NCBI RefSeq assembly: GCF_000022265.1
Contig: NC_011979.1
Coordinates: 3,540,001-3,572,000 of the forward strand
Source: Geotalea daltonii FRC-32
Lineage (GTDB): Bacteria; Desulfobacterota; Desulfuromonadia; Geobacterales; Geobacteraceae
Reading direction: 5' to 3'
DNA length: 32,000 nt
The notes under the pieces are model-generated. The model saw nothing but the letters and a program-made list of their open reading frames with translations. It was not told the origin of the DNA and did not search any database. The position numbers were made by a program, and so were the translations under genes. Below are positions 2,641-16,032 of the stretch, piece after piece; position 1 is the stretch's first letter, and each line of letters opens with the position of its first letter.

Positions 2641-4104
2641 TCAGAATGTTATCTCCGTTGTTTTGAACGTATTGCCGGCCCTGATGACCCTGACGATTGT
2701 TTTGGCGCCGCTTTTTATATTGATCTCAATATCATGGAACATCGCCGTTCTCTCCTGCTCCAGTGACAATGAATGCTTTCCCGCCGGAAGGCTGGCCCGC
2801 ATCACCTGCACCTCTGCCGGAAGAGTATTCCAGCTTCTGAGATCGGCATTTTCGCTGATGTAGTTATAGAGTAATGAACTGAGTTCCCCCAGGGAGCCGA
2901 ACTTGTCCTTCGATTTCTTCGCTGCAATCCCTTTGGCAACGGCTCGGATGATCTGGCGTGTCACCATGGCCGGGACCTTTTCCTTCAAGGCCTTAACCGC
3001 CAGAGCCCTGGCGTCGCAAAGGGGTTCGGTAACGCCGATGGTATCAGAGCCTTCCATAACCCACATCGGGGAAGCGTCAGGCCATCGCTGCCCATAGAAG
3101 GGGAAAGCCACGGCAACGATGCCTCCACTTGGCAAGGGTATGGGAATCTTCACCTCTTCCTTCTGGGGGACGAAATCTTCTTCGAAAAACAACAGGAGTT
3201 CACCCGTTTCCATCCCTGGCGATGAAGTATCATCATTCCAGGTAGCATCCGGCACATCAACCGCCTTCTTTAATTTATCCAGCTCCTCATCCATGCCCAA
3301 AACCCGGGCCAGGCGCATCACATCCTCTTGCAGGTAACTGTTGTCCGGCCGGATCTCCAGCGCCTTCTTGTAGTCGATATAGGCGTCATTCGGCTGTTTC
3401 AGCAGTTCGTAGACCACCCCCGACACATAGAAGGAATAGGCATTCTGGAACGAGTTCTTCACCTTGCCGGCAATCTCATCCATGGCCCCATAGCTTGCAT
3501 AGACGCGACCGGCCCCTTCGGAGCTGCTGAAGTGGTTTTTTTCAGCTTCGGCCCTGGCTTCTTCCAATTCCTCTTCATGCCGCCTGAGGGCTTCATCCTG
3601 CTCCCTATTGGCCCGGCGGATCTCGACCCCGGCTCCTTCAATATCATTCCTGAAAAGATAATTCATCGCCTGAAAATTGTGCAGAAGAACGCGCTCATAG
3701 CCTTCGCCCCGGTAGGGAAGCGCATTATCATTGGTGAGAATTGCGCTGACATGGGATAAAGCATTCGTTGCACTGATGGTCGCCTTTTCATCGGCGGCTC
3801 TTATGGCTTGCATGGCACATTCATAGCTCTTGACGCTGAAATCCACGTCACCCTGTATCTGGGCAATGCGCCCCAACTCCATGCCATAGAGAATGGAATC
3901 TATGCTTTTATTACCCGAAACAAGGCACCGGGAAAGATCTACCTTTCTGTCGGCTTTCAATTGCTCGATGACCGGGGTGATCCTGCCCGTATAGGGGGTG
4001 AAGATTGTTGTGGCGCAACCCGAGGTGAGGATGGCAACGGCAACCAGGAACACCTGAAGTGCGCTTCTTGGGTATTTCAAGGTGCTTGCAGGGCATTTCC
4101 TCAT
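2641..4104 (-). CDS. TPR-containing lipoprotein, COG3014-like
   Basis: 487-aa ORF with lipobox LTSGC. It has TPR-like helical repeats (…AYIDYKKALEIRPDN…). It sits in the arrangement usually seen next to LpoB-like and LPP20-like genes. Confidence 0.55.
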   Translation of the reverse strand: MRKCPASTLKYPRSALQVFLVAVAILTSGCATTIFTPYTGRITPVIEQLKADRKVDLSRCLVSGNKSIDSILYGMELGRIAQIQGDVDFSVKSYECAMQAIRAADEKATISATNALSHVSAILTNDNALPYRGEGYERVLLHNFQAMNYLFRNDIEGAGVEIRRANREQDEALRRHEEELEEARAEAEKNHFSSSEGAGRVYASYGAMDEIAGKVKNSFQNAYSFYVSGVVYELLKQPNDAYIDYKKALEIRPDNSYLQEDVMRLARVLGMDEELDKLKKAVDVPDATWNDDTSSPGMETGELLLFFEEDFVPQKEEVKIPIPLPSGGIVAVAFPFYGQRWPDASPMWVMEGSDTIGVTEPLCDARALAVKALKEKVPAMVTRQIIRAVAKGIAAKKSKDKFGSLGELSSLLYNYISENADLRSWNTLPAEVQVMRASLPAGKHSLSLEQERTAMFHDIEINIKSGAKTIVRVIRAGNTFKTTEITF

Positions 4105-4111
4105 CTATTTT

Positions 4112-5239
4112 TCACTTCAGGTAATTAATGGTGATGGCATTGGTGGAGAAGTTGACGATTTTGAAACTGCCCTTCTGGGCAATGCTGTTGGCCAGATAGA
4201 TGGTGTTTTCAGGATAAGTTACCACGAACGATCCAAGCTCCTTTTCTTCCACCCCTGCTACCCAGGCGATGTTCTGCAGTGCCTCTTTCACGGCAAAGTT
4301 TTCCCCCGGGTCTTTTATGCCGCTGACCTTGACCTGCACCCTTTTTGCTGCAGCCTTCAGATGCCTCCCGACCTTATCGGCAACCACCGGTTTAAGCTTG
4401 TCCGAAAGATTTTGCAACCCCTTGGCGGCGGCATCTTCCATTGTGCCGGCAAGCCCCTTCCCTTGCTCAGTTCCGGCAGCAAGGATTACCATCCGGCCCG
4501 ATGGGTCCCTGGTAACCAGCCTGTAGGTCAATCGGGCAGTGATGTTGTGGAAAGGGGTGTTCAGACCGAATCCCATATCCCCTCCCTTTTTTTTGGTGAG
4601 GATTAAGTCGATATTGCCGATGAGGAGAATGTTGGTGAGAAATTGGTGCATCATACTGCTCAAACTTCGGAAATTCCCGCTTTTAAGGGCAGTCTCGATA
4701 TTCCGGGGATCCACTTCACCGGTGGGAGCAACATCAACAACGGTGTATCCACGCTCGGCGAGATCGCCGATGATTTCCTCCGAAAAGAGGTTGGACTCCT
4801 GGTAATCTCCGGCCGCTCCCGAAGGTGAAATTTTCCTGGCCGGAATGAAAACGGCCACGGCATTGTTCAATGCCAGGTCGGAAAGGGCATCACGGGTCTT
4901 TGCCGGTTCCACGCACGCATTTATTTTTACTGCAACCACATTGTCTCCGATTTGATAATCGAGAAGACTAAAGGAGGTAATCAGGCCATAGATTTTTCTG
5001 TTTATCGTCTCGTCAACAAGCATCAGGTTCTGGACTACGCTCTGGGCATTGACATCTACGCCTGCAGTCTGTTCGATGGCAGCCAGTTTGGCCCGGGAGA
5101 TTGCCTCTGCTTTTGCTGAAGGTTTATCACCATTGACAATGACAGCTTCACCATCGGCATCCACACATTGGACTTGAGCCAAAACAGTCAACGGGCATAA
5201 CCACAATGAAAACATTATAAAAACTAAGATTTTCCACAT
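4112..5239 (-). CDS. Secreted FlgT-N/LPP20-like protein
   Basis: 375-aa ORF with an N-terminal signal peptide (…CPLTVLA/QVQ). It has an LPP20/FlgT-like N-terminal motif (…KAEAISRAKLAAIEQTAGVDV…). It is the first gene of the minus-strand operon and follows an AT-rich intergenic region. Confidence 0.55.
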   Translation of the reverse strand: MWKILVFIMFSLWLCPLTVLAQVQCVDADGEAVIVNGDKPSAKAEAISRAKLAAIEQTAGVDVNAQSVVQNLMLVDETINRKIYGLITSFSLLDYQIGDNVVAVKINACVEPAKTRDALSDLALNNAVAVFIPARKISPSGAAGDYQESNLFSEEIIGDLAERGYTVVDVAPTGEVDPRNIETALKSGNFRSLSSMMHQFLTNILLIGNIDLILTKKKGGDMGFGLNTPFHNITARLTYRLVTRDPSGRMVILAAGTEQGKGLAGTMEDAAAKGLQNLSDKLKPVVADKVGRHLKAAAKRVQVKVSGIKDPGENFAVKEALQNIAWVAGVEEKELGSFVVTYPENTIYLANSIAQKGSFKIVNFSTNAITINYLK

Positions 5240-5477
5240 GGCCGGAAACTCCGTATGATTGTCTAAGTAATGAATAACTACAGGAACATAAATTATTCAG
5301 ATTGAGATTCCAGGATCAGCTTTTCGCAAGGGCATTTCATAGCAGAACGCAGTCATTGGTGATTTTTGTTTCTATTTTATGTTTTTGTTTTTTCAATGCA
5401 ATGGCAATTGCCCCACCCATGAATTATATTTGTTTAACTAAACACCATTCTGATATCTTTCGATTCGCATGCAAGGC

Positions 5478-5505
5478 TTGAATTGGTGTTAAAATTTGGT
5501 AAACT
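5478..5505 (+). promoter_or_regulatory. Candidate sigma70 promoter for the sensor kinase
   Basis: TTGAAT (5478-5483), a 16-nt spacer, then TGG-TAAACT (extended -10, 5497-5505), all within an AT-rich intergenic region. Confidence 0.3.
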
Positions 5506-5558
5506 CACGCAAAATCGTGGAGATAGCGTTTATGTGATTGCAAAGCCTGGAGCCTTTC

Positions 5559-8024
5559 GTGATAGACACTGCAGTTTCTTGTGAGCAGTTAAAGAAATAC
5601 CACCTTGTGCTGTTGCTCATGATGGTTATTGCCATTGCCGCACCTTCATTTGCAGCAGATCCAGGCCCATCCCTTCAGCGATCTATCCGCGTCGTCATGG
5701 ACGACAACTACCCCCCTTTCGTTTTCAGAGACAGGGATGGCAGGATCAAGGGCATCATCATCGATCAGTGGCGCCTCTGGGAGAAGAAAACCAGTACTCG
5801 GGCCGAGATCAGCGCCATGGACTGGGCCGATGCCCAAAGGCTGATGGCCGATGGCGAATTCGACGTCATTGACACCATGTTCCGCAACGAAAAAAGGGAC
5901 AAGCTCTACGACTTTACCAAGCCCTATGCCAGCATTCCGGTTCCCATTTTCTTTCGTTCCGATATCTCCGGAATAAGAGACATCCAGGATCTTGCCGGTT
6001 TTGCCGTGGGAGTGAAGGCGGGGGGCAACATCATCGATGTGCTCAGGTCCCACGGCATCAACAACCTCATCCAGTTCAACAGTTACGAGGCGATTGTCAC
6101 CGCCGCCCGCGACCACAAGGTTAACGTCTTCACCGTCGATGAACCGCCCGCCTATTACTATCTTTATAAATTCGGCATCTGGGAACAATACCGGGCGACA
6201 AAACCCCTGTACATCGGGCAGTTTCATCGGGGGGTAAAAAAGGGAAACAAAGAGCTGCTTCAAACCGTTCAATTTGGTTTCAATCGCATATCAAAGGAAG
6301 AATACTCGGAAATAGAAGAGCGCTGGCGCGGTAAACCGATTCTGGGAATGAAAGAAATGCGCTTCATCAGAATCAGCGGCATTGCGGTCATGCTGGTTAT
6401 GCTGGCGCTCGTCCTGTGGCTGTGGATGCTGAAGCGCATGGTAAGGCAGCGAACCGATGCCCTGCAGAAGGAAGTACAAACCCGTATCGGCCATGAAACG
6501 ATGTTGCGGCACAGCGAAGAGAGCCTCCGCTCGCTCATGGATGCCATGCCGGTGGGACTGGCTCTCAGTGACAGCCAGGGCAACAATATTTACATCAATA
6601 AATGCTTCATCGAGCGTTTCGGCTATAGTCTTGGCGAAATTACCACCAAAGCAGCCTGGTATGCCCGTGCCTACCCGGACGAAACCTACAGGGAAAAGAT
6701 AGTCAACACCTGGAAGGCGGCAGTTGCCAAGGCGCAGAGTGAACAGATAGGGATTCCCCCGTTTGAGTCACTGATTACCTGCAAGGATGGCTCTGTCAGC
6801 CACAATATTGCCAATACCCAATTGATTCAGGACCGCATCCTGATTATCTACACCGATATCACCGAACGGGAAAAAAGCCGCGACGAGCTTCTCAAGATGC
6901 AGAAGCTGGAATCACTGGGAATATTGGCAGGAGGCATCGCCCATGACTTCAACAATGTCCTCACCGGCATCATGGGCAACATTTCACTGTCACGGATGCT
7001 CCTCGATGAATCGCACCGGGCGACGACAACCCTGAAATCTGCGGAAAAGGCCTGTCAAAGGGCCAGCGAACTGGCCATCCAACTGCTGACTTTCTCAAAG
7101 GGAAGCCACCCGGTAAAGAAAACCGTCTCCGCCGGCAATATCGCCAAGGCATCGGCCTCGCGGGTATCAGACGGTTTCAGTGTGATCAGCGTCTTCAATA
7201 TCCCTGAAAATCTCCATCCCGTGGAGGTGGATGAGGGCCAGATAGGACAGGCCTTCAGCAATATAGCGATCAACGCAGCACAGGCAATGCCGGAAGGCGG
7301 GACCTTTACCGTAAGGGCGGAGAATGTGGCCCTGGACAAGGCAAACAGCATGTCCTTGCCAGCGGGGGATTACGTCAGATTCACCTTTTCCGACACCGGA
7401 TGCGGCATTCCCGAAGAGGATCTGAAGAAGGTTTTCGATCCATATTTTACCACCAGGGCAGGAGGCAGTGGCCTTGGCCTGGCTGCAGCCCATTCCATCA
7501 TCGGCAAGCATGGCGGACATATCGGTGTCAGTTCGGTAGTTGGCAAGGGAACGGTTTTCCAGGTCTTGTTGCCGGCAAGCAGTAATGAATCACCAGCCCA
7601 TGAAGAGGAGGGGAAAATGCCGGCAGCGCCGGAAAAGTGCAACAACTCCTTGTTGATCATGGACGACGAAGAAATGATCAGAGACCTTGCTACAGAGTTG
7701 CTGGGGGCGTTGGGATACAAGGTAAGCACTGCCGCGGACGGCAAAGAGGCAGTTGCCATGTACAGGGATGCACAGGAATCGGGCAGGCCATATTCCGCCG
7801 TCATCATGGACCTTACCGTGCCTGGAGGCATGGGTGGAAAAGAGGCAGCCCGGCTGATACTGGATGCATATCCCGATGCCAGGCTCATCGTCTCAAGCGG
7901 CTATTCCGAAGATCCGGTCATGGCGGAATACGCCAGGTTCGGCTTCTGCGCCGCCATGGTTAAACCTTACCGCGCCGTAGATGTCATGGGGGTTCTCGAT
8001 AAAGTGCTTTCTTCCAGGGATTGA
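5559..8024 (+). CDS. Hybrid sensor histidine kinase (periplasmic SBP_bac_3 domain, TM, PAS, HisKA, HATPase_c, receiver)
   Basis: ORF 5538..8024 begins at a TTG. The in-frame GTG at 5559 has a GGAG 6 nt upstream and yields a proper signal peptide (…KKYHLVLLLMMVIAIAAPSFA/ADP). Recognisable elements: a type-3 solute-binding domain; a TM helix (ISGIAVMLVMLALVLWLWML); a PAS domain; an H-box (GGIAHDFNN); G-boxes (DTGCGI, GGSGLGL); and a C-terminal receiver (LLIMDDEE…VIMDLTVPG…KP). Confidence 0.9.
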   Translation: MIDTAVSCEQLKKYHLVLLLMMVIAIAAPSFAADPGPSLQRSIRVVMDDNYPPFVFRDRDGRIKGIIIDQWRLWEKKTSTRAEISAMDWADAQRLMADGEFDVIDTMFRNEKRDKLYDFTKPYASIPVPIFFRSDISGIRDIQDLAGFAVGVKAGGNIIDVLRSHGINNLIQFNSYEAIVTAARDHKVNVFTVDEPPAYYYLYKFGIWEQYRATKPLYIGQFHRGVKKGNKELLQTVQFGFNRISKEEYSEIEERWRGKPILGMKEMRFIRISGIAVMLVMLALVLWLWMLKRMVRQRTDALQKEVQTRIGHETMLRHSEESLRSLMDAMPVGLALSDSQGNNIYINKCFIERFGYSLGEITTKAAWYARAYPDETYREKIVNTWKAAVAKAQSEQIGIPPFESLITCKDGSVSHNIANTQLIQDRILIIYTDITEREKSRDELLKMQKLESLGILAGGIAHDFNNVLTGIMGNISLSRMLLDESHRATTTLKSAEKACQRASELAIQLLTFSKGSHPVKKTVSAGNIAKASASRVSDGFSVISVFNIPENLHPVEVDEGQIGQAFSNIAINAAQAMPEGGTFTVRAENVALDKANSMSLPAGDYVRFTFSDTGCGIPEEDLKKVFDPYFTTRAGGSGLGLAAAHSIIGKHGGHIGVSSVVGKGTVFQVLLPASSNESPAHEEEGKMPAAPEKCNNSLLIMDDEEMIRDLATELLGALGYKVSTAADGKEAVAMYRDAQESGRPYSAVIMDLTVPGGMGGKEAARLILDAYPDARLIVSSGYSEDPVMAEYARFGFCAAMVKPYRAVDVMGVLDKVLSSRD

Positions 8025-8043
8025 ACGGAAATGAAAACATCAA

Positions 8044-9294
8044 TTAACGCCACACTCCACGGGTATCTATCACCACCTTCTCCTTGAGAAGTTCCTTGTC
8101 TATGGTTTTAAATTCATCGTGGTCGACCAGAACCACCAGGATGTCCGCCTCGCGCAGCACCTGGGACAGCTCATGCAGCTCCATGCCCGCCGATCCATTG
8201 CATACATTGGGTTCACAGGCCATCACCCTGCCCACTCCGCTTGAAATGAGCCCTCTGGTAATTTCCATTGCCGGCGACTCGCGCAGATCGTCGATATTGG
8301 CCTTGAAGGACAGTCCCAGGCAGCCGATAACCGGTTCCTTGAACCGCTCCGCCTTGGCCTTTATCTTGTTCATGACCCAGTGGGGCTTGTGATCGTTCAC
8401 CTCCCGGGCGGTACGAATCAGCCGCGCCTCTTCCGGCGCAGCGGAAACCACGAACCACGGATCGACGGCAATGCAGTGCCCACCCACCCCCGGTCCGGGA
8501 TTGAGAATATTTACACGGGGATGGCGGTTAGCCAGCTCGATCACATCCCAGACATTGACCCCCACCCGGTCGCTGATCAGCGACAGCTCGTTGGCAAAGG
8601 CAATATTCACGTCCCGAAAGGAATTTTCCACCAGCTTGGACATCTCCGCCGTCTTGCTGTCGGTGAGGAATATTGTCCCGTTGCAGAAGGTGTTGTATAA
8701 ATCTCTGGCCTTTTCGGCCGAAGCCTTGTTAATGCCGCCGATGATCCGGTCATTGTCCACCAGTTCGCGGATTATGTGCCCCGGCAGCACCCTTTCCGGG
8801 CAATGGGCGATGAAGACCTGGGGGGAATGGTTGTTGGTACCCGGATGCTGCGCCAGGTCCGGCCGCAGCTGCTTGACTATCTCACCGATCGCCTCGGTGG
8901 TCCCCACCGGCGACGTGGATTCCAGAATGATGAGACTTCCTTCCCGAAGAAAAGGCGCAATGGCCCGCGTAGCGGCATCCACGTAACTCACATCCGGGAT
9001 CTTCAGATGGGCCTGTTCCCCGTTTTTGAATGGAGTAGGCACGGCGATAATGAAGGTATCCGCCTCCTCGGGGACCAACGATGCCCGGAGATTGCCGCTG
9101 TTGACGGCAGAACGGACCAGGATGTCCAGATCGGGCTCGACAATGTGTATCCTGCCCGAATTGATGGTGTTGACCGCCTCCTCGTTTATGTCCACCCCCA
9201 CCACCTCATGCCCCTTTGTGGCGAGCATGGAAGCAGTGGGCAAGCCAATGTAGCCAAGACCCATGACGACAATTTTCTGACGGTTCTTTTGCAT
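8044..9294 (-). CDS. wecC: UDP-N-acetyl-D-mannosamine dehydrogenase
   Basis: Near-colinear similarity to E. coli WecC as I remember it (IVVMGLGYIGLPTA…, INSGRIHIVEPDL, ESTSPVGTTE, CPERVLPG, AEMSKLVENSFRDVNIAFANEL, NRHPRVNILNPGPGVGGHCIAVDPWF, LIRTAREVNDHKP, DDLRESPA). The ATG at 9294 is preferred over the GTG at 9300. Confidence 0.9.
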   Translation of the reverse strand: MQKNRQKIVVMGLGYIGLPTASMLATKGHEVVGVDINEEAVNTINSGRIHIVEPDLDILVRSAVNSGNLRASLVPEEADTFIIAVPTPFKNGEQAHLKIPDVSYVDAATRAIAPFLREGSLIILESTSPVGTTEAIGEIVKQLRPDLAQHPGTNNHSPQVFIAHCPERVLPGHIIRELVDNDRIIGGINKASAEKARDLYNTFCNGTIFLTDSKTAEMSKLVENSFRDVNIAFANELSLISDRVGVNVWDVIELANRHPRVNILNPGPGVGGHCIAVDPWFVVSAAPEEARLIRTAREVNDHKPHWVMNKIKAKAERFKEPVIGCLGLSFKANIDDLRESPAMEITRGLISSGVGRVMACEPNVCNGSAGMELHELSQVLREADILVVLVDHDEFKTIDKELLKEKVVIDTRGVWR

Positions 9295-9451
9295 AGGCAC
9301 CCCATATTTAATTGGAAGTATCTAACAAAAGTTACCACCAGATCATTCATTGTAAAGTTATAACTTTTAAAACATCTTCTCGCTTCGTTCAACGTGGCAG
9401 CGCCTCATTGGGCTCTGGAGTTTATCGGAAAGATTCTGTTCATCAATAGGC

Positions 9452-9481
9452 TTGACCATAAGGTTTTAATTAGATTATATT
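9452..9481 (+). promoter_or_regulatory. Candidate sigma70 promoter reading into the cassette array
   Basis: TTGACC (9452-9457), an 18-nt spacer, then TATATT (9476-9481). It lies upstream of the first cassette ORF. Confidence 0.3.
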
Positions 9482-9620
9482 TTACCGACATTCACTTCTC
9501 AGTGCTGGTCAGGGGGCCTTCTGGCGAAGCAACATATGTATTTAGATGCTTTTATATACAACCATATGCACCCACTCTAACTGGTCAATGTGTAGTTGAA
9601 TCAGAAAAAGGAAAAACAGC

Positions 9621-10145
9621 ATGGGAAACGCGGAAAAAATACCAAAAAACATCCAAGTAATCACTGCTGACGGAAGTTTGCGAATTCACTACACGTGGCT
9701 AACCATTTACACCATTAGATTTCTTCTTGCTGCGATGGTCTGGGACGGTTTTCTGCTGTGGTTTTTAGTTGCCCAAGTAGCAGACTCAAGGAATCCGACA
9801 TTTCATCCAGTACTTGTTGCCCTTGGAGTTACCGGAGTGCTCATTACGTATGTGGCACTTGCACATGTCGTAAACACAACTGAAATCCGAGTTAATAAAC
9901 ATGACTTGGAGACAAAGGTTGGTCCGTTCCCATGGCCAGGAAATAGTATGTTCCGGGTCGATAGCATTTTGAAATTAGAATCAGGAAGAGGTACAGGGCG
10001 GCTAATGCCGAGGTGGTCCGCAAACGTGAGTGTAAATGATAGGTGCGGCGAGAAGAAAATGCTGATTACAAACCTTGCCCGAGCGGATCAAGCAGAATAC
10101 ATCGTTGCAATGATTTCGGAATTCCTCAGGGAATCAAGAGCATGA
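9621..10145 (+). CDS. Cassette ORF 1: two-TM membrane protein of unknown function
   Basis: AAAGGAAAAA lies upstream of the ATG. Two hydrophobic helices are present (IRFLLAAMVWDGFLLWFLVA and VLVALGVTGVLITYVALA), followed by a soluble C-terminal domain. Codon usage is AT-rich, unlike the flanks. Confidence 0.55.
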   Translation: MGNAEKIPKNIQVITADGSLRIHYTWLTIYTIRFLLAAMVWDGFLLWFLVAQVADSRNPTFHPVLVALGVTGVLITYVALAHVVNTTEIRVNKHDLETKVGPFPWPGNSMFRVDSILKLESGRGTGRLMPRWSANVSVNDRCGEKKMLITNLARADQAEYIVAMISEFLRESRA

Positions 10146-10147
10146 AG

Positions 10148-10203
10148 ATTCAAGCAGGAAGATGCACCGATCTGACAGCCAGTGATCTCCCGGCCCGTTG
10201 TAT
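10148..10203 (+). repeat. attC-like site 1 (degenerate outer core)
   Basis: The outer 7-mers ATTCAAG and GTTGTAT pair at 5 of 7 positions; the left core reads AAG, not AAC. The inner stem 10157-10167 / 10182-10190 has 9 bp, with two bulged bases (A10160, G10164) in the 5' arm. Confidence 0.4.
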
Positions 10204-10218
10204 GAAATGGAGAACAAA

Positions 10219-10452
10219 ATGAATATACTACGAGTGCTGTCAGGTGTTGCCTTTGTTTGCCTTGGAGTAATTGTAATCAAATTTGGCGACAAAGATGTCA
10301 CAAAGAGAAGTAACGAAAGAGGAGTAATTACAAGAGTTTTCTCCCATACCCACCTAAATCCAAAACTTCTTAAATTGCAGAGGTCAGTAATCAAATGGGG
10401 TTTCGGCCTCGTTGCGCTCTGGTTTGGGCTTTGGCTGATAGTCGATTTATAG
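10219..10452 (+). CDS. Cassette ORF 2: small two-TM membrane protein
   Basis: Track ORF 10198..10452. The ATG at 10219 is preceded by GGAGAA at a 5-nt spacing. Two hydrophobic helices are present (VLSGVAFVCLGVIVI and WGFGLVALWFGLWLIV). Confidence 0.45.
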   Translation: MNILRVLSGVAFVCLGVIVIKFGDKDVTKRSNERGVITRVFSHTHLNPKLLKLQRSVIKWGFGLVALWFGLWLIVDL

Positions 10453-10507
10453 GCGAAAAAAAGCAGGAGTAGGCATAAGAGGCGGAAAACAGAATTTAAC
10501 CGAAAGA

Positions 10508-10547
10508 GGGAATTTGACAGAGGGAATTTGACAGGGGAATTTGACAG
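10508..10547. repeat. Three tandem copies of GGGAATTTGACAG abutting hairpin copy 1
   Basis: Copies at 10508-10520, 10522-10534 and 10535-10547. The last copy runs directly into the hairpin arm. Confidence 0.9.
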
Positions 10548-10618
10548 TGTCAGGTCTACACCTTGACAGAAAAGGATTAAATTAGTGTCAAGGTGTAGAC
10601 CTGACACATATTCTTCCT
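10546..10618. repeat. 73-bp repeat, copy 1: perfect 22-bp-stem hairpin
   Basis: GTGTCAGGTCTACACCTTGACA (10547-10568), a 17-nt loop GAAAAGGATTAAATTAG, then TGTCAAGGTGTAGACCTGACAC (10586-10607), followed by ATATTCTTCCT. It is 100% identical to 13683-13755. It is bounded by ATTTAAC (10494-10500) and GTTAGCA (10619-10625). Confidence 0.95.
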
Positions 10619-10675
10619 GTTAGCATCTGAAAACCAGCGCATATGAAGTAATCCATCTCCAGCCAAGAGAATGAC

Positions 10676-11677
10676 ATGAAACTACCCTCAAGAATTAAGC
10701 AGCATAAAGCCGAGTCAGATTCCTACGCCATTTTGCTGTACAAGTTGAAAAACGTCGGCATTTTCAGAAACTTAACAGAAAATGATTATGGGATTGATTT
10801 TGAGATTGAGGTCCTTAAGGGAGATCAACTAACCGGAAGATATGTCAAAGTACAAGTAAAATCATCAGAAGATTTAAAGATAAGAAAAAAAGACAAGGTG
10901 CCAACAGTAGGAGGGATAAAGGATACAACTCTCAATTATTGGGCTGAGCTAAGCTTAAGGGTCAATGTTCTAGCGTATGCAGTTGATTTAAAAAATGAGA
11001 ATATATACATCACCAAGCCCATGTTTTGGCAAGCAACCAAACTCATAGACGGATCAAAGAGAAGCAAATCAATCGAATTTCTTCCTGTGGACCAATATCA
11101 CTCAGAGGTCGCTGGCGCATTAACATATGCATTTGCACTTGCTCCTACCGCATCTGACATTATTCACAATCACAAAGTAGCATTAAAGCACCTTATGGAG
11201 TTCATAGAGTTTTACGTAGGCACTTTCCATTATGATATCCATCTACCAACAGATGAACCCGACGTCTTTCGATCATTCCTGGATGTATGCCGGATACTAA
11301 TGTGGGACATGAGATATGACAAGTCTGCCGAACTCTCAGAAGAGGAGCAAAAATGCTTACTTAGATACGAGTATTGGGCCAAGCAGGGAAACCTCATTTA
11401 TGACGAAATTCCTCATTATGTTCTACAGAAGCCTATGAAGTTTTTAATGCCTCTCTTTATCAAGTCGGTAAAACGTTACAACACAAGGGTTTTAGATGCC
11501 AGATACTACTGGTTATATAATGACTGTAATTACCTTCGGCTTGTATATGAATGTGTAATGCCTGAAGATCTTGATTCCCATGAAGGAATTATGAGATGGG
11601 GGTATGATCTTCGTATTAACGGCATCAAAAAACCAGCTGACTTTTACATGTTTCTAGCTGAAACTAAGAAATGCTAA
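10676..11677 (+). CDS. Cassette ORF 3: DUF4365 (PD-(D/E)xK restriction-endonuclease-like) domain protein with an uncharacterised helical C-terminal domain
   Basis: The N-terminus (…ESDSYAILLYKLKNVGIFRNLTENDYGIDFEIEV…GRYVKVQVKSS…) matches my memory of the DUF4365 signature (D-x-G-I-D … E … Q-V-K-S). The coding sequence is very AT-rich. Confidence 0.65.
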   Translation: MKLPSRIKQHKAESDSYAILLYKLKNVGIFRNLTENDYGIDFEIEVLKGDQLTGRYVKVQVKSSEDLKIRKKDKVPTVGGIKDTTLNYWAELSLRVNVLAYAVDLKNENIYITKPMFWQATKLIDGSKRSKSIEFLPVDQYHSEVAGALTYAFALAPTASDIIHNHKVALKHLMEFIEFYVGTFHYDIHLPTDEPDVFRSFLDVCRILMWDMRYDKSAELSEEEQKCLLRYEYWAKQGNLIYDEIPHYVLQKPMKFLMPLFIKSVKRYNTRVLDARYYWLYNDCNYLRLVYECVMPEDLDSHEGIMRWGYDLRINGIKKPADFYMFLAETKKC

Positions 11678-11736
11678 CAATCGGCGGCAGACGGTCTTCG
11701 CTGACGTTCCGCCGCTGCGCCGAAGCCCCGTTGGCA
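11672..11736 (+). repeat. attC-like site 3
   Basis: TGCTAAC (11672-11678) overlaps the TAA stop and pairs 6/7 with GTTGGCA (11730-11736). The inner stem 11681-11694 / 11712-11723 has 12 bp, with bulged G11687 and A11691 in the 5' arm. The loop is 17 nt. The site is GC-rich against AT-rich ORFs. Confidence 0.6.
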
Positions 11737-11747
11737 CAGGAGAAATA

Positions 11748-12512
11748 ATGTCAGATCTGAATTCAAATATTACCAATCGTATCTCTCAGCTACTTGGCGC
11801 TCTTTTTATATTATTGGCAGTGTCAGCACTGATAGCTGCACTAAATGAAGGTGTATGGCATGAGTTGGGCATGAGCCTTGTCGGCGGCCTTATAGTGTTA
11901 TTTATAGCAGTGTTTATAGCTGACCAACTGATGCAGAAATATAACGAAGAAAAATTCAATCCTCACCGAGATTATGTTTTTGCGATAGTTCAGAAGGCAA
12001 TAACGGAGTGTTATTTACGAGTTATTCCCCCAATGAAAAAATCAGAGTTACATCATGCAGAATTTGGTAAGTATTCCTCGGGTTATTATGATTTGCCAAG
12101 TTTAAATGGCACGTACAGAGAGCATATTCAGGAAACTCTTCGAATCTCGTCCCAAAACCTTGACGGCTTCGTCAAAGCTGTTGATATTTCCCGAGCCTCT
12201 TTGGATGTGTTTTTTGAAAAAACAAAGGAAATTAGTCACCACTTTTTTACAATATTAGACCCAGAATTACTCGAATATTTATTGCGTCTAGAAGATGCCC
12301 ATAACGAATTAGATATAGCTGTTATGGACTCCGGCATTAGCTTAGATACAAAGGTATCACTGTATTCGTTTTCTTTTATGAACACATTAATTGAAATGCA
12401 TAAGCTCCAACAACTACTCTTGTCCAGGGCCACAAAACGCTTAACAATGGAAGAATGGAAAAGAGATATTAGTGCTAAAGTGGACAGGTATACAGCATTG
12501 TGTGGGAAATAG
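11748..12512 (+). CDS. Cassette ORF 4: two-TM protein with a cytoplasmic helical domain, function unknown
   Basis: A strong AGGAGA lies 5 nt upstream of the ATG. TM helices are LLGALFILLAVSALIAAL and LVGGLIVLFIAVFIA. Confidence 0.55.
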   Translation: MSDLNSNITNRISQLLGALFILLAVSALIAALNEGVWHELGMSLVGGLIVLFIAVFIADQLMQKYNEEKFNPHRDYVFAIVQKAITECYLRVIPPMKKSELHHAEFGKYSSGYYDLPSLNGTYREHIQETLRISSQNLDGFVKAVDISRASLDVFFEKTKEISHHFFTILDPELLEYLLRLEDAHNELDIAVMDSGISLDTKVSLYSFSFMNTLIEMHKLQQLLLSRATKRLTMEEWKRDISAKVDRYTALCGK

Positions 12513-12514
12513 TG

Positions 12515-12607
12515 GGGCAACGCGAAAATGATGTGCCAACAGGCCCTAGGACACCGACCAGGGTTGAAAATCGCCCCAGTGCGGGTCAAGGGCGCAACCC
12601 GTTGTGC
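12515..12607 (+). repeat. GC-rich structured spacer; possible long or degenerate attC
   Basis: GGGCAAC (12515-12521) pairs partly with GTTGTGC (12601-12607). I could not find a canonical bulged stem. It contains several short GC hairpins and an internal CAAC…GTTG pair (12537-12566). Confidence 0.25.
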
Positions 12608-12620
12608 GAAGGGAACTTTA

Positions 12621-13058
12621 ATGCGTAAGAAAGTTAGAAAAGAATTGGATGACAAGTCTCGGCAGTGCAGAGAAGCGAGCACTTCAACAATATTAAAGCC
12701 TACGGTCGTCGTCGAAACGACCGATGCTTACGAATTTACTGCTGCAATTAAGTTGCTGGAAAAAGAAGGAATACCATTTTGTACAGAGAAAGAGTACACG
12801 GACGATCTTGTTGAAGGCAGGAGCTTTCTTGGTCCGTATGCATGGAAGATAATTGTTGAGGACGAGCTGCGGCAGAAGGCAACCAGATTAATAGACGAAG
12901 GTGGAGTTAGCGTAGTCATTGACGCTCCAGATGAAGGTGACGAAACCACGATTGAACGAGGGTTGGGAAAAAAAGATACTTCATATTGGATTGCAATCTT
13001 TTACTGCGGTCTAGGTTTGCTATCGCTTGGAATGCTTCTGAAAAATCTCTTTGACTGA
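12621..13058 (+). CDS. Cassette ORF 5: small tail-anchored protein with a DUF2007-like domain
   Basis: Track ORF 12528..13058. The first 31 codons lie in the GC-rich spacer, so the ATG at 12621 (AAGGGA upstream) is preferred. …TTDAYEFTAAIKLLEKEGIPFCTE… resembles DUF2007. A C-terminal TM helix is present (YWIAIFYCGLGLLSLGMLL). Confidence 0.45.
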   Translation: MRKKVRKELDDKSRQCREASTSTILKPTVVVETTDAYEFTAAIKLLEKEGIPFCTEKEYTDDLVEGRSFLGPYAWKIIVEDELRQKATRLIDEGGVSVVIDAPDEGDETTIERGLGKKDTSYWIAIFYCGLGLLSLGMLLKNLFD

Positions 13059-13067
13059 AATCCGAAA

Positions 13068-13127
13068 GCACAACCAGGCGGCGGCACACAGACGCTAACG
13101 CGTTGGTGCGCCCCCGAACCGTTATGC
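13068..13127 (+). repeat. attC-like site 5
   Basis: GCACAAC (13068-13074) pairs 6/7 with GTTATGC (13121-13127). The inner stem 13077-13095 / 13100-13115 has 15 bp plus one mismatch. Bulged G13084, A13088 and G13091 are all in the 5' arm. The loop is a TAAC tetraloop. Total length is 60 bp. Confidence 0.6.
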
Positions 13128-13157
13128 CGCCCAAAAAGACAGAAAGGCGAAAAAAAC

Positions 13158-13550
13158 ATGTGGTACCAGTTCTGCGAAAACCCACGCTCGATCACAGAGA
13201 TCTTTGGTAATGAACCTGTAGGCAATCCGGTTGAAATACACAGCGTCCGACTTCATCAAGATGGTCCATTGATTCAGCTTCAAATCGAACTGCCGACGTT
13301 CCCGGAGAAACAACAACCACGATGGCCTATTGGTGCAAACACACTTCAGGTTGAACTCGATCTCTGGGGAGTAACCAGCTTTGAGCAGGTTGGCTGGGGA
13401 ACGAGCAATATAGGAGTGCTGAGTCTTGAAAGAGAGGATGCTCTCAAATTCACATTTGTATCTAACCATTCAAAGTTCAGTGGAAGCTGCATTGTGGCTC
13501 GTATTGGCAAGGTGAGTGCTTATATCAACGGTAGTAAAGAGAAGGTATAA
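13158..13550 (+). CDS. Cassette ORF 6: Imm50-like immunity protein (orphan)
   Basis: The pattern …VEIHSVRLHQDGPLIQLQIELPTFPEKQQPRWPIGANTLQVELDLWGVTSFEQVGW…ARIGKVSAYING resembles the all-beta Imm50 family of polymorphic-toxin immunity proteins (recalled, not searched). Confidence 0.5.
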   Translation: MWYQFCENPRSITEIFGNEPVGNPVEIHSVRLHQDGPLIQLQIELPTFPEKQQPRWPIGANTLQVELDLWGVTSFEQVGWGTSNIGVLSLEREDALKFTFVSNHSKFSGSCIVARIGKVSAYINGSKEKV

Positions 13551-13612
13551 CATCGACGCAGACTCTGACGCGGCGAACAACGCCGCGCAGGTCACGCCGC
13601 GACACGTTGGTC
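13545..13612 (+). repeat. attC-like site 6
   Basis: GTATAAC (13545-13551) overlaps the TAA stop. The right core is GTTGGTC (13606-13612). The inner stem 13561-13575 / 13581-13593 has 13 bp, with bulged T13564 and A13568 in the 5' arm. The loop is AACAA. Confidence 0.5.
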
Positions 13613-13623
13613 GGGCTCTGAGC

Positions 13624-13689
13624 CAAATTTGGTAGTGTCACAAATTTGGTAGCAAATTTGGTAGTGTCATAGCAAATTTGGTAGTGTCA
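13624..13689. repeat. Tandem CAAATTTGGTAG(TGTCA) units abutting hairpin copy 2
   Basis: Units at 13624-13640, 13641-13652 (truncated), 13653-13669 and 13673-13689. Each full unit contains the outermost 6 nt (GTGTCA) of the hairpin's left arm. Confidence 0.9.
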
Positions 13690-13755
13690 GGTCTACACCT
13701 TGACAGAAAAGGATTAAATTAGTGTCAAGGTGTAGACCTGACACATATTCTTCCT
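13683..13755. repeat. 73-bp repeat, copy 2: perfect 22-bp-stem hairpin
   Basis: Identical to 10546-10618, with arms at 13684-13705 and 13723-13744. Both copies have the same loop orientation, so they form a direct repeat 3137 bp apart. Confidence 0.95.
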
Positions 13756-13800
13756 CCTGACACATATTCTTCCTCCCATATTCTTCCTCCATATTCTTAC
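13739..13800. repeat. Telescoping tandem duplications of the right hairpin junction
   Basis: TGACACATATTCTTCCTCC occurs twice (13739-13757 and 13758-13776). It is followed by the truncated CATATTCTTCCTCC (13777-13790) and then ATATTCTTAC (13791-13800). Confidence 0.9.
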
Positions 13801-13857
13801 TCAGAAATATTCATCCATCTTGTCGCATGTCAAGGCAGCCCCCTTAGAACTTATTTC

Positions 13858-16002
13858 CTACACCATTAGGCATTGTCTGAATTGTTTTTCCCGTACCTTT
13901 TCCTGAACCGTAGCCGTGCCGTTTATGTACCTGGAATAGACCGCTAGCGCCCAGACCGGGAAGAACAGGCTGTAACCGTGGTAGCGCAAGTAGAATACCC
14001 GCGGGAAACCGGTGCCGGTAAATTGCTTCTCGTTCCAGCCGTTGCAGTAGCTTTCCGTCAAATATCGTACACCGTTCCTGACGGCGCTGTGACGCCACTC
14101 ACCGGCCGCCATCAGCGCCATCAGCGCCCATGATGTCTGTGAGGCGGTGCTGGCGCCGCTTCCGGCCAGGGATGGATCATCATAGCTCGCGCAGGTTTCC
14201 CCCCAGCCGCCGTCGCTGTTCTGGCAGGAGATCAGCCACTCCACCGCTTTTCTCACATACGGGGCATCCATGTTCTCACCGGCCTGGTGCAACCCGGAAA
14301 GTACCGACCAGGTGCCATAGATGTAATTGACACCCCATCGTCCGAACCAGCCGCCAAACGGCTCCTGCTCCTTCTTCAAATAGGCGATGCCGCGGGCAAT
14401 CGGTGGGTAATCAGGGCCGTGCCCCAGCATCCCCATCATCTCTATACATCTGCCGGTCAGATCGGCGGTGCTGGGATCCAGCAAGGCCCCGTGGTCGGCA
14501 AAGGGGATATCGTTCAGGTAGAAATAGTCGTTATCCACATCAAAGGCCCCCCAACCGCCGTCCGTGCTTTGCATCCCCTGCACCCACCTGATCGCCCGTT
14601 CAATCTTTTCACGATATTCCGGTTTTTCCAGCGCCCCGGCACGGAACAGGCTCATCAGTACTTTTGCTGTATCATCCACATCGGGATAGCGGCTGTTTTC
14701 GTACTGGAAGGCCCACCCTCCCGACTCCAGCCCCGGACATTTCTCCGACCAGTCTCCCGGTGTGGCAATCTGCTGGCTGAACAGCCATTTGATGGCCCTG
14801 TCCGTTACTCCCGAGTTGTTTTCGGCATAACCTGACTCACACAGGGCCGACAGACTCATGCAGGTGTCCCAGATGGGGGAGTTGCAGGGCTGACAGAAAC
14901 TGAACTCCGTGTTGCCGGCTGTATCGGTCAGGTAGGTTGGAGATAGTTCAGGCGCTGCTGAAGAGTTGTCTATGGCAATGCCGCCACTGTCATCATCCAT
15001 GGGGATGGTGCCTGTCTTCAGATTGCGGTGCACCATCAGGTTATCGACCGCCTCCAGGCCGCGCAAATAATCGGCATCGTCATCGCTGCACCCCAGCGTC
15101 TTCAGGGCCATGACTGCATTGGCCATAGCCGGGTAGATGGCGCCAATGCCGCCGTCTCCCTGCATTCTGGCCCGTGTCCAGCGTTCAGCCTCGGCCAGGG
15201 CATGTTGTTTGATCCGGCCGGGGACCAGGTGCATGGTGCGTTTCAGCACCCGGTCCAGGGCGATGAAGACGTTTTTGCGCCAGGCATGGTGACGGAACTT
15301 ATCCAGATGGACCAGCATGTCCGGCGGAGTGGTGAACAACTCGGTGATCCCCTCGTTGTATTGCAGACGGCAGATCGGTTGTGTAGCGTAAAGGATAAGT
15401 AGCGGCACAATTACAGTCCGTGACCAGTAGGCTACCTTGTTCAGGTGAAAGAAAAACCAGCGCGGCAGCAGCATGATCTCGATCGGCATGGCCGGTGCGG
15501 TATGCCACGGGATCTGACCGAAGGTAGCCAGGGTGATGCGGGTGAATACGTTGCACTTGGCCGCCCCGCCGAGGGAGAGAATCAGCTGGCGCGCCCTGAC
15601 CATATGGGGAGCGTTCTTGTCGTGCCCCAGCAGCTTGAGGGCAAAATAGGCCTTAACGCTGGCACTGATATTGACATTGCCGTCAACGGCATACAGCGGC
15701 CAGCCGCCGTCAGGCAGCTGGCGCTCCTGCATGTAGGCGGCCAGCCGCTCGGAAATCTCCGGATCGATCTCACGGCCGATAAAGCGCTGCAGCATCACGT
15801 ACTCCGCAGGGATGGTCACATCCGCCTCCAGGTCAAAGACCCAGTGTCCGTCGTCCTGCTGCTGCCCGGCCAGCTGTGAAGCAGCCACACTGGTCACTTT
15901 TTCCAGATCGGCAGCGTCCATGATGGCGCAGGTTTCGCTCCCCCTGGCTTGGGTGGTTTTGCCCCCCTCGATCACACTGAAAGTACCTTTATGCTTATTC
16001 AT
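13858..16002 (-). CDS. shc: Squalene-hopene cyclase
   Basis: Contains the DVDDTA catalytic motif (codons at about 14665-14682), repeated QW-type motifs (…DGGW…) and CQPCNSPIWDT. The ATG at 16002 (MNKHKG…) has a GGAGG 5-6 nt upstream, so it is preferred over the ORF-track start at 16023. Confidence 0.92.
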   Translation of the reverse strand: MNKHKGTFSVIEGGKTTQARGSETCAIMDAADLEKVTSVAASQLAGQQQDDGHWVFDLEADVTIPAEYVMLQRFIGREIDPEISERLAAYMQERQLPDGGWPLYAVDGNVNISASVKAYFALKLLGHDKNAPHMVRARQLILSLGGAAKCNVFTRITLATFGQIPWHTAPAMPIEIMLLPRWFFFHLNKVAYWSRTVIVPLLILYATQPICRLQYNEGITELFTTPPDMLVHLDKFRHHAWRKNVFIALDRVLKRTMHLVPGRIKQHALAEAERWTRARMQGDGGIGAIYPAMANAVMALKTLGCSDDDADYLRGLEAVDNLMVHRNLKTGTIPMDDDSGGIAIDNSSAAPELSPTYLTDTAGNTEFSFCQPCNSPIWDTCMSLSALCESGYAENNSGVTDRAIKWLFSQQIATPGDWSEKCPGLESGGWAFQYENSRYPDVDDTAKVLMSLFRAGALEKPEYREKIERAIRWVQGMQSTDGGWGAFDVDNDYFYLNDIPFADHGALLDPSTADLTGRCIEMMGMLGHGPDYPPIARGIAYLKKEQEPFGGWFGRWGVNYIYGTWSVLSGLHQAGENMDAPYVRKAVEWLISCQNSDGGWGETCASYDDPSLAGSGASTASQTSWALMALMAAGEWRHSAVRNGVRYLTESYCNGWNEKQFTGTGFPRVFYLRYHGYSLFFPVWALAVYSRYINGTATVQEKVREKQFRQCLMV

Positions 16003-16032
16003 GTTTTTCCTCCATAACGCCAAACATTTACA

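Follow-up and report, generated by a model that had tools for sequence, protein, structure and literature searches.

Can a single gene, carried alone on an integron cassette, make up an entire defence system? The question is raised by a gene within a 32,000-nt stretch of the Geotalea daltonii FRC-32 genome (NC_011979.1, positions 3,540,001 to 3,572,000 of the forward strand; hereafter the window, whose numbering is used unless a relative's locus is named), which codes for a protein of 333 aa, composed of an N-terminal DUF4365 domain and a C-terminal helical domain (Table 1). The reading that we favour, with a probability of about 0.5 and largely by analogy, is that this protein would act alone, as a self-contained means of defence against phages or plasmids, joining a sensor to a DREN-type nuclease that oligomerisation activates. 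We arrive at it because the protein combines a DREN-type nuclease with a private second domain, has no partner, belongs to a family that travels as a cassette across phyla and has relatives in defence and mobile-element neighbourhoods.

The N-terminal part of the protein is, as judged from sequence and predicted fold, a DUF4365/DREN-type PD-(D/E)xK nuclease-like domain with its putative catalytic residues intact, namely D41, Q60 and K62, plus E13 on helix 1. The ATG start is sound because homologues align from residue 1, and an AlphaFold2 model of the whole protein, built with an 82-sequence alignment as input, reached a predicted local distance difference test (pLDDT) of 94.1 and a predicted template modelling (pTM) score of 0.91. 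The Pfam profile PF14280 (DUF4365) matched residues 13-150, covering nearly its whole length (1-136 of 139 profile positions) and scoring 81.7 bits where the gathering cut-off is 24.3 bits (E 6.7e-23), and it matched likewise in all 27 aligned relatives scanned. The original prediction, made from the letters alone, had singled out a D-x-G-I-D ... E-x-E ... Q-V-K-S signature and placed D41 and K62 within it. Both residues proved to be where it had put them, in the motif D37-Y-G39-I-D41-F-E43-I-E45 ... Q60-V-K62-S63; D37, Y38, G39, D41, E45, K58, Q60, V61 and K62, among others, are invariant in the 82-sequence alignment, and E13 and E43 nearly so. The domain itself had been drawn too short, at ~65 aa: the extent of the PF14280 match and the DSSP assignment on the model, with the last strand at residues 131-134, give it ~137-150 aa. 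Its modelled topology comprises a helix at residues 8-23, three long strands, a helix at residues 83-93 and then one more strand.

Foldseek comparison with the Protein Data Bank (PDB) placed DREN-APAZ chains of SPARDA in all of the top 15 positions (9qcc, 9qbp, 9qbq, 9vx6, 9jt2, 9jsz; E from 7e-5 up to about 0.05, with ~150 N-terminal columns aligned), followed by the PD-(D/E)xK nucleases D212, PrfA/RecU and Hjc. These weaker matches are what speaks for a DNA-processing enzyme with a housekeeping or element-maintenance function, for instance a recombination or repair nuclease resembling a Holliday-junction resolvase, with no role in conflict. We regard that explanation as very improbable, since the family is rare and patchy across phyla (some 40 loci in 185,579 species genomes; 54 representative clusters among 1.84 billion) and is always found in variable accessory contexts and on cassettes, and since the base composition at the window gene is foreign.

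The best structural match, the SPARDA DREN (PDB 9jt2, 9jsz, 9qcc, 9qbp, 9vx6), shares both Pfam family and fold with the window protein. In NbaSPARDA the DREN, which equates to DUF4365 and spans aa 1-146, uses D41, Q60 and K62 for catalysis and has its helix alpha2 at aa 83-91 (PMC12205087); the window protein presents the same catalytic residues under the same numbers, and its corresponding helix at aa 83-93. On its own, the DREN is monomeric and inactive, and it becomes a collateral nuclease just on tetramerisation (PMC12205087). By analogy, the 333-aa protein may be a nuclease, and its activation may likewise depend on oligomerisation. A further precedent for the nuclease domain is the DUF4365 toxin EAT16 (see below), the toxicity of which is abolished by DxGxD...QxK mutations (PMC11297309). 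The likeness ends with this domain. SPARDA carries APAZ, whereas the C-terminal domain of the window protein retrieves no SPARDA or APAZ structure when searched alone; SPARDA also has an adjacent short Argonaute (MID-PIWI), whereas no PIWI or MID match was found in the open reading frames (ORFs) scanned between 4112 and 19280. The protein is thus not a SPARDA component, as it has neither an APAZ domain nor an Argonaute partner. Nor does it belong to Avs/STAND, with which the original prediction had chiefly associated DUF4365, because it has no NTPase domain: within its 333 aa there is no Pfam NTPase domain, no PADLOC match to Avs and no P-loop fold in the model. The literature and libraries searched document the domain as the SPARDA DREN effector instead. 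A fragment of either system was rejected on the same grounds, that is, no APAZ, no prokaryotic Argonaute (pAgo) gene and no NTPase domain.

The second domain, modelled alone with AlphaFold2, is all-helical (pLDDT 94.5) and measures ~195 aa, not the 260 aa or so previously allotted to it; the accompanying statement that it has no recognised motif held up. Pfam returned nothing for it, even with 27 relatives scanned at E <= 10, and structure searches gave no significant match, the best E being 0.75 in the PDB, with a probability of 0.08, and 0.57 in BFVD. A PDB sequence search yielded no match either with the single protein or with the 82-sequence profile. When the domain was run by phmmer against 1.84 billion representative proteins, 54 matches were recovered; every full-length one (313-369 aa) has it at about residues 140-330, the remaining matches being fragments, and PF14280 lies at the N-terminus of 10 of the 10 most distant full-length matches. 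The domain is thus private to this protein family and obligatorily coupled to DUF4365. In the C-terminal half of the 82-sequence alignment D187 is invariant, and P157, D161, H166, W234, P259 and Y277-Y278-W279 nearly so. Homology searches gathered 267-305 clusters at 90% identity, nearly all of 325-365 aa and with the common two-domain layout, annotated at best as 'DUF4365 domain-containing protein'; they come from Vibrio, Shewanella, Idiomarina, Vreelandella, Pseudomonas, Cupriavidus, Ralstonia, Paraburkholderia, Flavobacterium, Marinifilum, Kiritimatiellae and many metagenomes.

Sensing by the C-terminal domain would fit this arrangement. In the scheme that we propose, this domain would keep the nuclease silent until a cue derived from an invader is sensed, and would then drive self-association of the 333-aa protein; self-association would in turn unleash non-specific DNA cleavage, in the manner of SPARDA DREN tetramerisation, and the degradation of invader and host DNA alike would end in growth arrest or abortive infection. 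An anti-phage phenotype may be anticipated on this basis. More tentatively, and with appreciably less confidence than in the defence reading at large, the C-terminal domain might be a previously unseen sensor fold that directly recognises a phage or plasmid component and so switches on an oligomerisation-dependent collateral DNase. The family would then constitute a minimal abortive-infection system of the sensor-DREN type within one polypeptide, separate from SPARDA and from Divona (introduced below), which has moved between bacterial phyla as a cassette with a conserved TGCTAAC R box.

The DUF4365 gene is a single-gene integron cassette, the first of four chained cassettes. As had been predicted, it is flanked by a hairpin element on one side (10538-10618) and by an attC site on the other (11672-11736), and the proposal that it stands alone on its cassette is upheld by the cassette boundaries, by the attC site and by the relatives described below. 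We assessed boundaries with the rule that the first 6 nt after the G|TT junction are the complement of the cassette's own R'' box. The rule holds along the array as listed in Table 1, against a background of 4% positives among 870 ORFs, and the TAA stop of the DUF4365 gene falls within the R'' box of attC1. With the R boxes constrained to pair, all four attC sites fold as bulged hairpins, that of attC1 being an attC-type hairpin on the bottom strand (-13.6 kcal/mol) and those of attC3 and attC4 reaching -17.8 and -17.5 kcal/mol, respectively. Unconstrained folds were better than those of shuffled sequences for the attC3 (z -2.3) and attC4 regions and no better for the attC1 (z -0.98) and attC2 regions. 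Because the latter two are unremarkable when unconstrained, the attC call rests on the R boxes and the boundary rule together with the constrained folds, and the boundary rule is the stronger evidence for cassettes.

Neighbouring ORFs were clustered across 38 genomic loci of the family (numbered here with an L), and no conserved partner gene emerged. About ten loci, roughly a quarter, display the exact pair GTTAGCA upstream of the gene and TGCTAAC at its stop, and the pair is kept even where the stop codon falls outside the box. Its occurrence in Bacteroidales, in several Gammaproteobacteria and in the window host suggests a single cassette lineage that moved between phyla. In Vibrio mediterranei (L009) the DUF4365 cassette belongs to a cassette chain downstream of a divergent intI, and in Flavobacterium (L018) to a chain of six; both arrays are longer than that of the window. 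At L002 and L044 the attC site is degenerate or truncated. The family found no match in phage genomes and, among plasmids, three megaplasmid matches alone, and a phage- or plasmid-borne origin was rejected on these grounds. As a side observation, an uncultured delta proteobacterium, a relative of the window host to judge by a common AMP-binding/acyltransferase gene, carries a copy (L030, 8001-8882) that tblastn aligns over residues 3-300 at 63% identity and of which just a 140-aa ORF is left; this copy, which sits among many small ORFs, is probably decayed.

Relatives that are not on cassettes lie in defence or mobile-element neighbourhoods. In Cupriavidus taiwanensis (L043) only an 83-aa ORF separates the relative from the Gabija-like pair given in Table 1, and other loci bring Fic, DUF4238, Cdc6-like and HerA-like genes and tyrosine recombinases. 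The restriction-modification and Mrr_cat genes that adjoin some relatives would also suit a modification-dependent restriction endonuclease (type IV, Mrr-like), the helical domain of which would read modified or unusual phage DNA so that this DNA is cut directly; neither abortive infection nor an oligomerisation switch would be involved. A solitary gene with no methyltransferase partner is likewise what type IV enzymes lead one to expect. We nonetheless consider this alternative unlikely: the C-terminal domain is unlike any DNA-binding or modification-reading fold in the PDB, and the known DUF4365 nucleases are non-specific, collateral ones.

As to the rest of the array, the cassette 2 protein had no match in Pfam, PADLOC or PHROGs. 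That of cassette 3 has a hydrophobic tail and a weak DUF2007 match, with no support from PADLOC or PHROGs; ATG 12621 is its likelier start, because the annotated 176-aa ORF (start 12528) begins inside attC2. Cassette 4 encodes a homologue of the polymorphic-toxin immunity protein Imm50 (PF15594, E 6.4e-15), an orphan in that no toxin gene lies nearby. With this orphan in the array, the DUF4365 protein could be a toxin in its own right, either an effector delivered as cargo of an extracellular contractile injection system (eCIS), a type VI secretion system or a contact-dependent system, or an addiction toxin through which the array would be stabilised, toxin-antitoxin cassettes being known from integron arrays. 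The precedent is EAT16, an eCIS-associated toxin of Photorhabdus aegyptia, which has two domains with DUF4365 at the N-terminus and loses toxicity when its DxGxD...QxK motif is mutated (PMC11297309). Layout and motif are the same in the window protein. EAT16, however, is encoded with its injection system, and neither the window flanks scanned nor the loci inspected around relatives yielded one; in the loci examined, the sole secretion or eCIS gene directly beside the gene is a T2SSE-type ATPase at L023. Moreover, the family has no immunity or antitoxin gene as a conserved neighbour, cassette 1 carries one ORF only, and Imm50 occupies a separate cassette with its own attC. A toxin appears somewhat less probable still than a type IV enzyme.

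Table 1. Coordinates of the DUF4365 gene, its cassette array and the enclosing repeats in the window, with boundary boxes and neighbours at relatives' loci (locus numbering).
Feature	Position	Strand	Basis or remarks
ORF, DUF4365 + helical-domain protein	10676-11677	+	333 aa, ATG start; PF14280 match, homologue alignment
DREN/DUF4365 PD-(D/E)xK nuclease domain, aa 1-137	10676-11086	+	PF14280 profile, Foldseek, invariant residues
Putative active-site codons	E13 10712-10714; D41 10796-10798; Q60 10853-10855; K62 10859-10861	+	alignment, DREN comparison
C-terminal all-alpha domain, aa 138-333, family-specific	11087-11674	+	AlphaFold2 model, phmmer
R' box GTTAGCA, 5' recombination junction G|TTAGCA, start of cassette 1	10619-10625	+	exact reverse complement of own R'' TGCTAAC, 11672-11678
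Cassette 1, 1111 bp, DUF4365 gene as sole cargo	10620-11730	+	G|TT junctions; boundary rule TTAGCA vs R'' TGCTAAC, perfect
attC1, 65 nt, R'' TGCTAAC, R' GTTGGCA	11672-11736	+	bulged hairpin on bottom strand
Cassette 2	11731-12601	+	254-aa protein 11748-12512, hydrophobic N-terminal stretch; attC2 12534-12607; boundary rule TTGGCA vs R'' TGCCAAC, perfect
Cassette 3	12602-13121	+	145-aa protein, ATG 12621 to stop 13058; attC3 13068-13127; boundary rule TTGTGC vs R'' GCACAAC, perfect
Cassette 4	13122-13606	+	Imm50 immunity-protein homologue 13158-13550; attC4 13545-13612; boundary rule TTATGC vs R'' GTATAAC, 5 of 6
81-nt repeat, left copy	10538-10618	.	perfect 22-bp hairpin 10547-10568 / 10586-10607; adjoins first cassette junction
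81-nt hairpin repeat, right copy	13675-13755	.	98% identical direct repeat, 63 nt after attC4
Relatives with GTTAGCA...TGCTAAC: L001 Bacteroidales, L002, L003, L009 Vibrio mediterranei, L010 + L044/L045 Shewanella, L046 Idiomarina	about 7955-9130 in most		
Relative with variant boundary AGCTAAC: L018 Flavobacterium	7966-9198		
Neighbours, L043 Cupriavidus taiwanensis	3774-7605		OLD-like TOPRIM ATPase (691 aa) + UvrD helicase (593 aa), Gabija-like, immediately upstream
Neighbours, L044			type I restriction-modification genes + integrase
Neighbours, L042 and L017			giant helicases and Mrr_cat
Neighbours, L050			AAA_13 ATPase

For the defence reading, the closest precedent is Divona, a single-gene anti-phage cassette of the sedentary chromosomal integron of Vibrio cholerae N16961, where it is one of 16 anti-phage cassettes (Darracq, Littner et al., 2024, bioRxiv 10.1101/2024.07.02.601686). 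Moved to the first cassette position, Divona conferred protection against phage 24, and it is described as an N-terminal DUF4365 / Mrr-subfamily RecB-like nuclease with a crr6-like (PF08847) domain (bioRxiv 10.1101/2024.07.02.601686). Divona and the window protein have in common that each is a single-gene integron cassette with an N-terminal DUF4365, no partner gene and a second domain without established role. They differ in that second domain, crr6-like in Divona, whereas 27 members of the window family gave no PF08847 match at E <= 10 by hmmscan, a search of lower sensitivity than the profile-profile comparison from which the Divona assignment probably comes. Neither V. cholerae nor Escherichia coli is represented in the top 120 relatives listed for the window protein, in the top 120 listed for a Vibrio parahaemolyticus member of the family, or in the clusters with names among 20 C-terminal-domain matches looked up, and a blastn search of E. 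coli genomes with the conserved 5' portion of the homologue from V. mediterranei found no match. The description of Divona and these homologue listings argue, indirectly, against close orthology; a distant relationship is possible. Given Divona, the window gene is already described in kind, and the statement in the original prediction that it corresponds to no described system was too strong, the more so as EAT16 provides a two-domain DUF4365 toxin.

Several results weigh against the defence reading and are to be set beside the evidence above. The resemblance to SPARDA concerns a domain with just 16-19% identity. The 333-aa protein had no match in NCBIfam or PHROGs, and in PADLOC 2.0 the sole match was to the pAgo-associated restriction endonuclease model, over part of the N-terminus (aa 28-110). 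Structure searches of the PDB and BFVD gave the C-terminal domain no recognisable sensor or oligomerisation fold. While relatives do have defence or mobile-element surroundings rather than the housekeeping ones that would have told against the original prediction, no recognisable defence genes are present in the neighbourhood of L048/L049. Expression is a further concern: tblastn with the V. mediterranei IntI revealed no integrase in the 32-kb window (best E 3), no Pc promoter was found at the array, and there is no convincing promoter directly upstream of the DUF4365 gene. With no integrase, Pc or clear promoter, the gene may be silent in this host. A sigma-70-like site (10/12) at 9452-9481 precedes two ORFs for small membrane proteins and could drive the entire set of + strand genes.

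Clusters of attC sites lacking an integron integrase (CALIN) constitute a category of IntegronFinder. Within the 32 kb seen, the window array looks like a CALIN because no IntI homologue is present, and it shares with that category four chained attC sites and cassette-sized spacing; an integrase could reside elsewhere in the genome, beyond the window. It departs from a CALIN in the hairpin repeat of 81 nt that encloses it, an unrelated sequence and no described integron feature. Array and repeats form part of a low-GC island of 4.5 kb (about 9330-13830; 40-47% GC, vs 52-60% GC in the flanks) between a UDP-sugar dehydrogenase gene (8044-9300, - strand) and a squalene-hopene cyclase gene (13858-16023, - strand). 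On the favoured reading this island was acquired horizontally; a GC of 40%, set against 56% in the flanks, is part of the evidence for mobility. Two ORFs for small hydrophobic proteins of 174 and 84 aa (9621-10145 and 10198-10452) lie upstream of the left hairpin, with the low GC of the island and no attC sites.

Each copy of the 81-nt repeat contains a perfect 22-bp stem with a 17-nt loop, and the pair encloses the entire four-cassette array. The short tandem repeats beside the hairpins differ, with GGGAATTTGACAG x3 on the left and CAAATTTGGTAGTGTCA x3 and CATATTCTTCCTCC x3-4 on the right. The hairpin core recurs in two unrelated metagenome contigs, in one of which (L051) it has a different loop and no cassettes, and in the other of which (L052) it adjoins two chained cassettes. 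An attI site or another integron part is an unlikely identity for this hairpin, as it occurs without cassettes in L051 and has a GTT-type core only where the first cassette abuts. The repeat looks like a dispersed element of the repetitive extragenic palindrome or miniature inverted-repeat transposable element (REP/MITE) kind. Rfam scanning of the island returned sub-threshold microRNA-precursor matches to the hairpin alone, which we took as generic hairpin matches. An identical DUF4365 gene is present in an independent short-read assembly (L041, Logan contig SRR9436588_720, 3122 nt); this contig runs from within one hairpin repeat to within the other, covering all that lies between them, consistently with a multi-copy repeat in that genome.

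What the locus means for the family depends on its activity. Were the gene inactive, or silent in its host, it would simply be a cassette as yet uncharacterised, belonging to a rare accessory family. Were it active, the cassette would add to the integron-borne defences a compact, 1-kb, one-gene nuclease system with a new trigger domain. DREN-type collateral nucleases already serve nucleic-acid detection, and one controlled by another kind of sensor could find use. An active cassette would also take the idea of integrons as defence biobanks outside Vibrio, to arrays of other phyla that lack an integrase.

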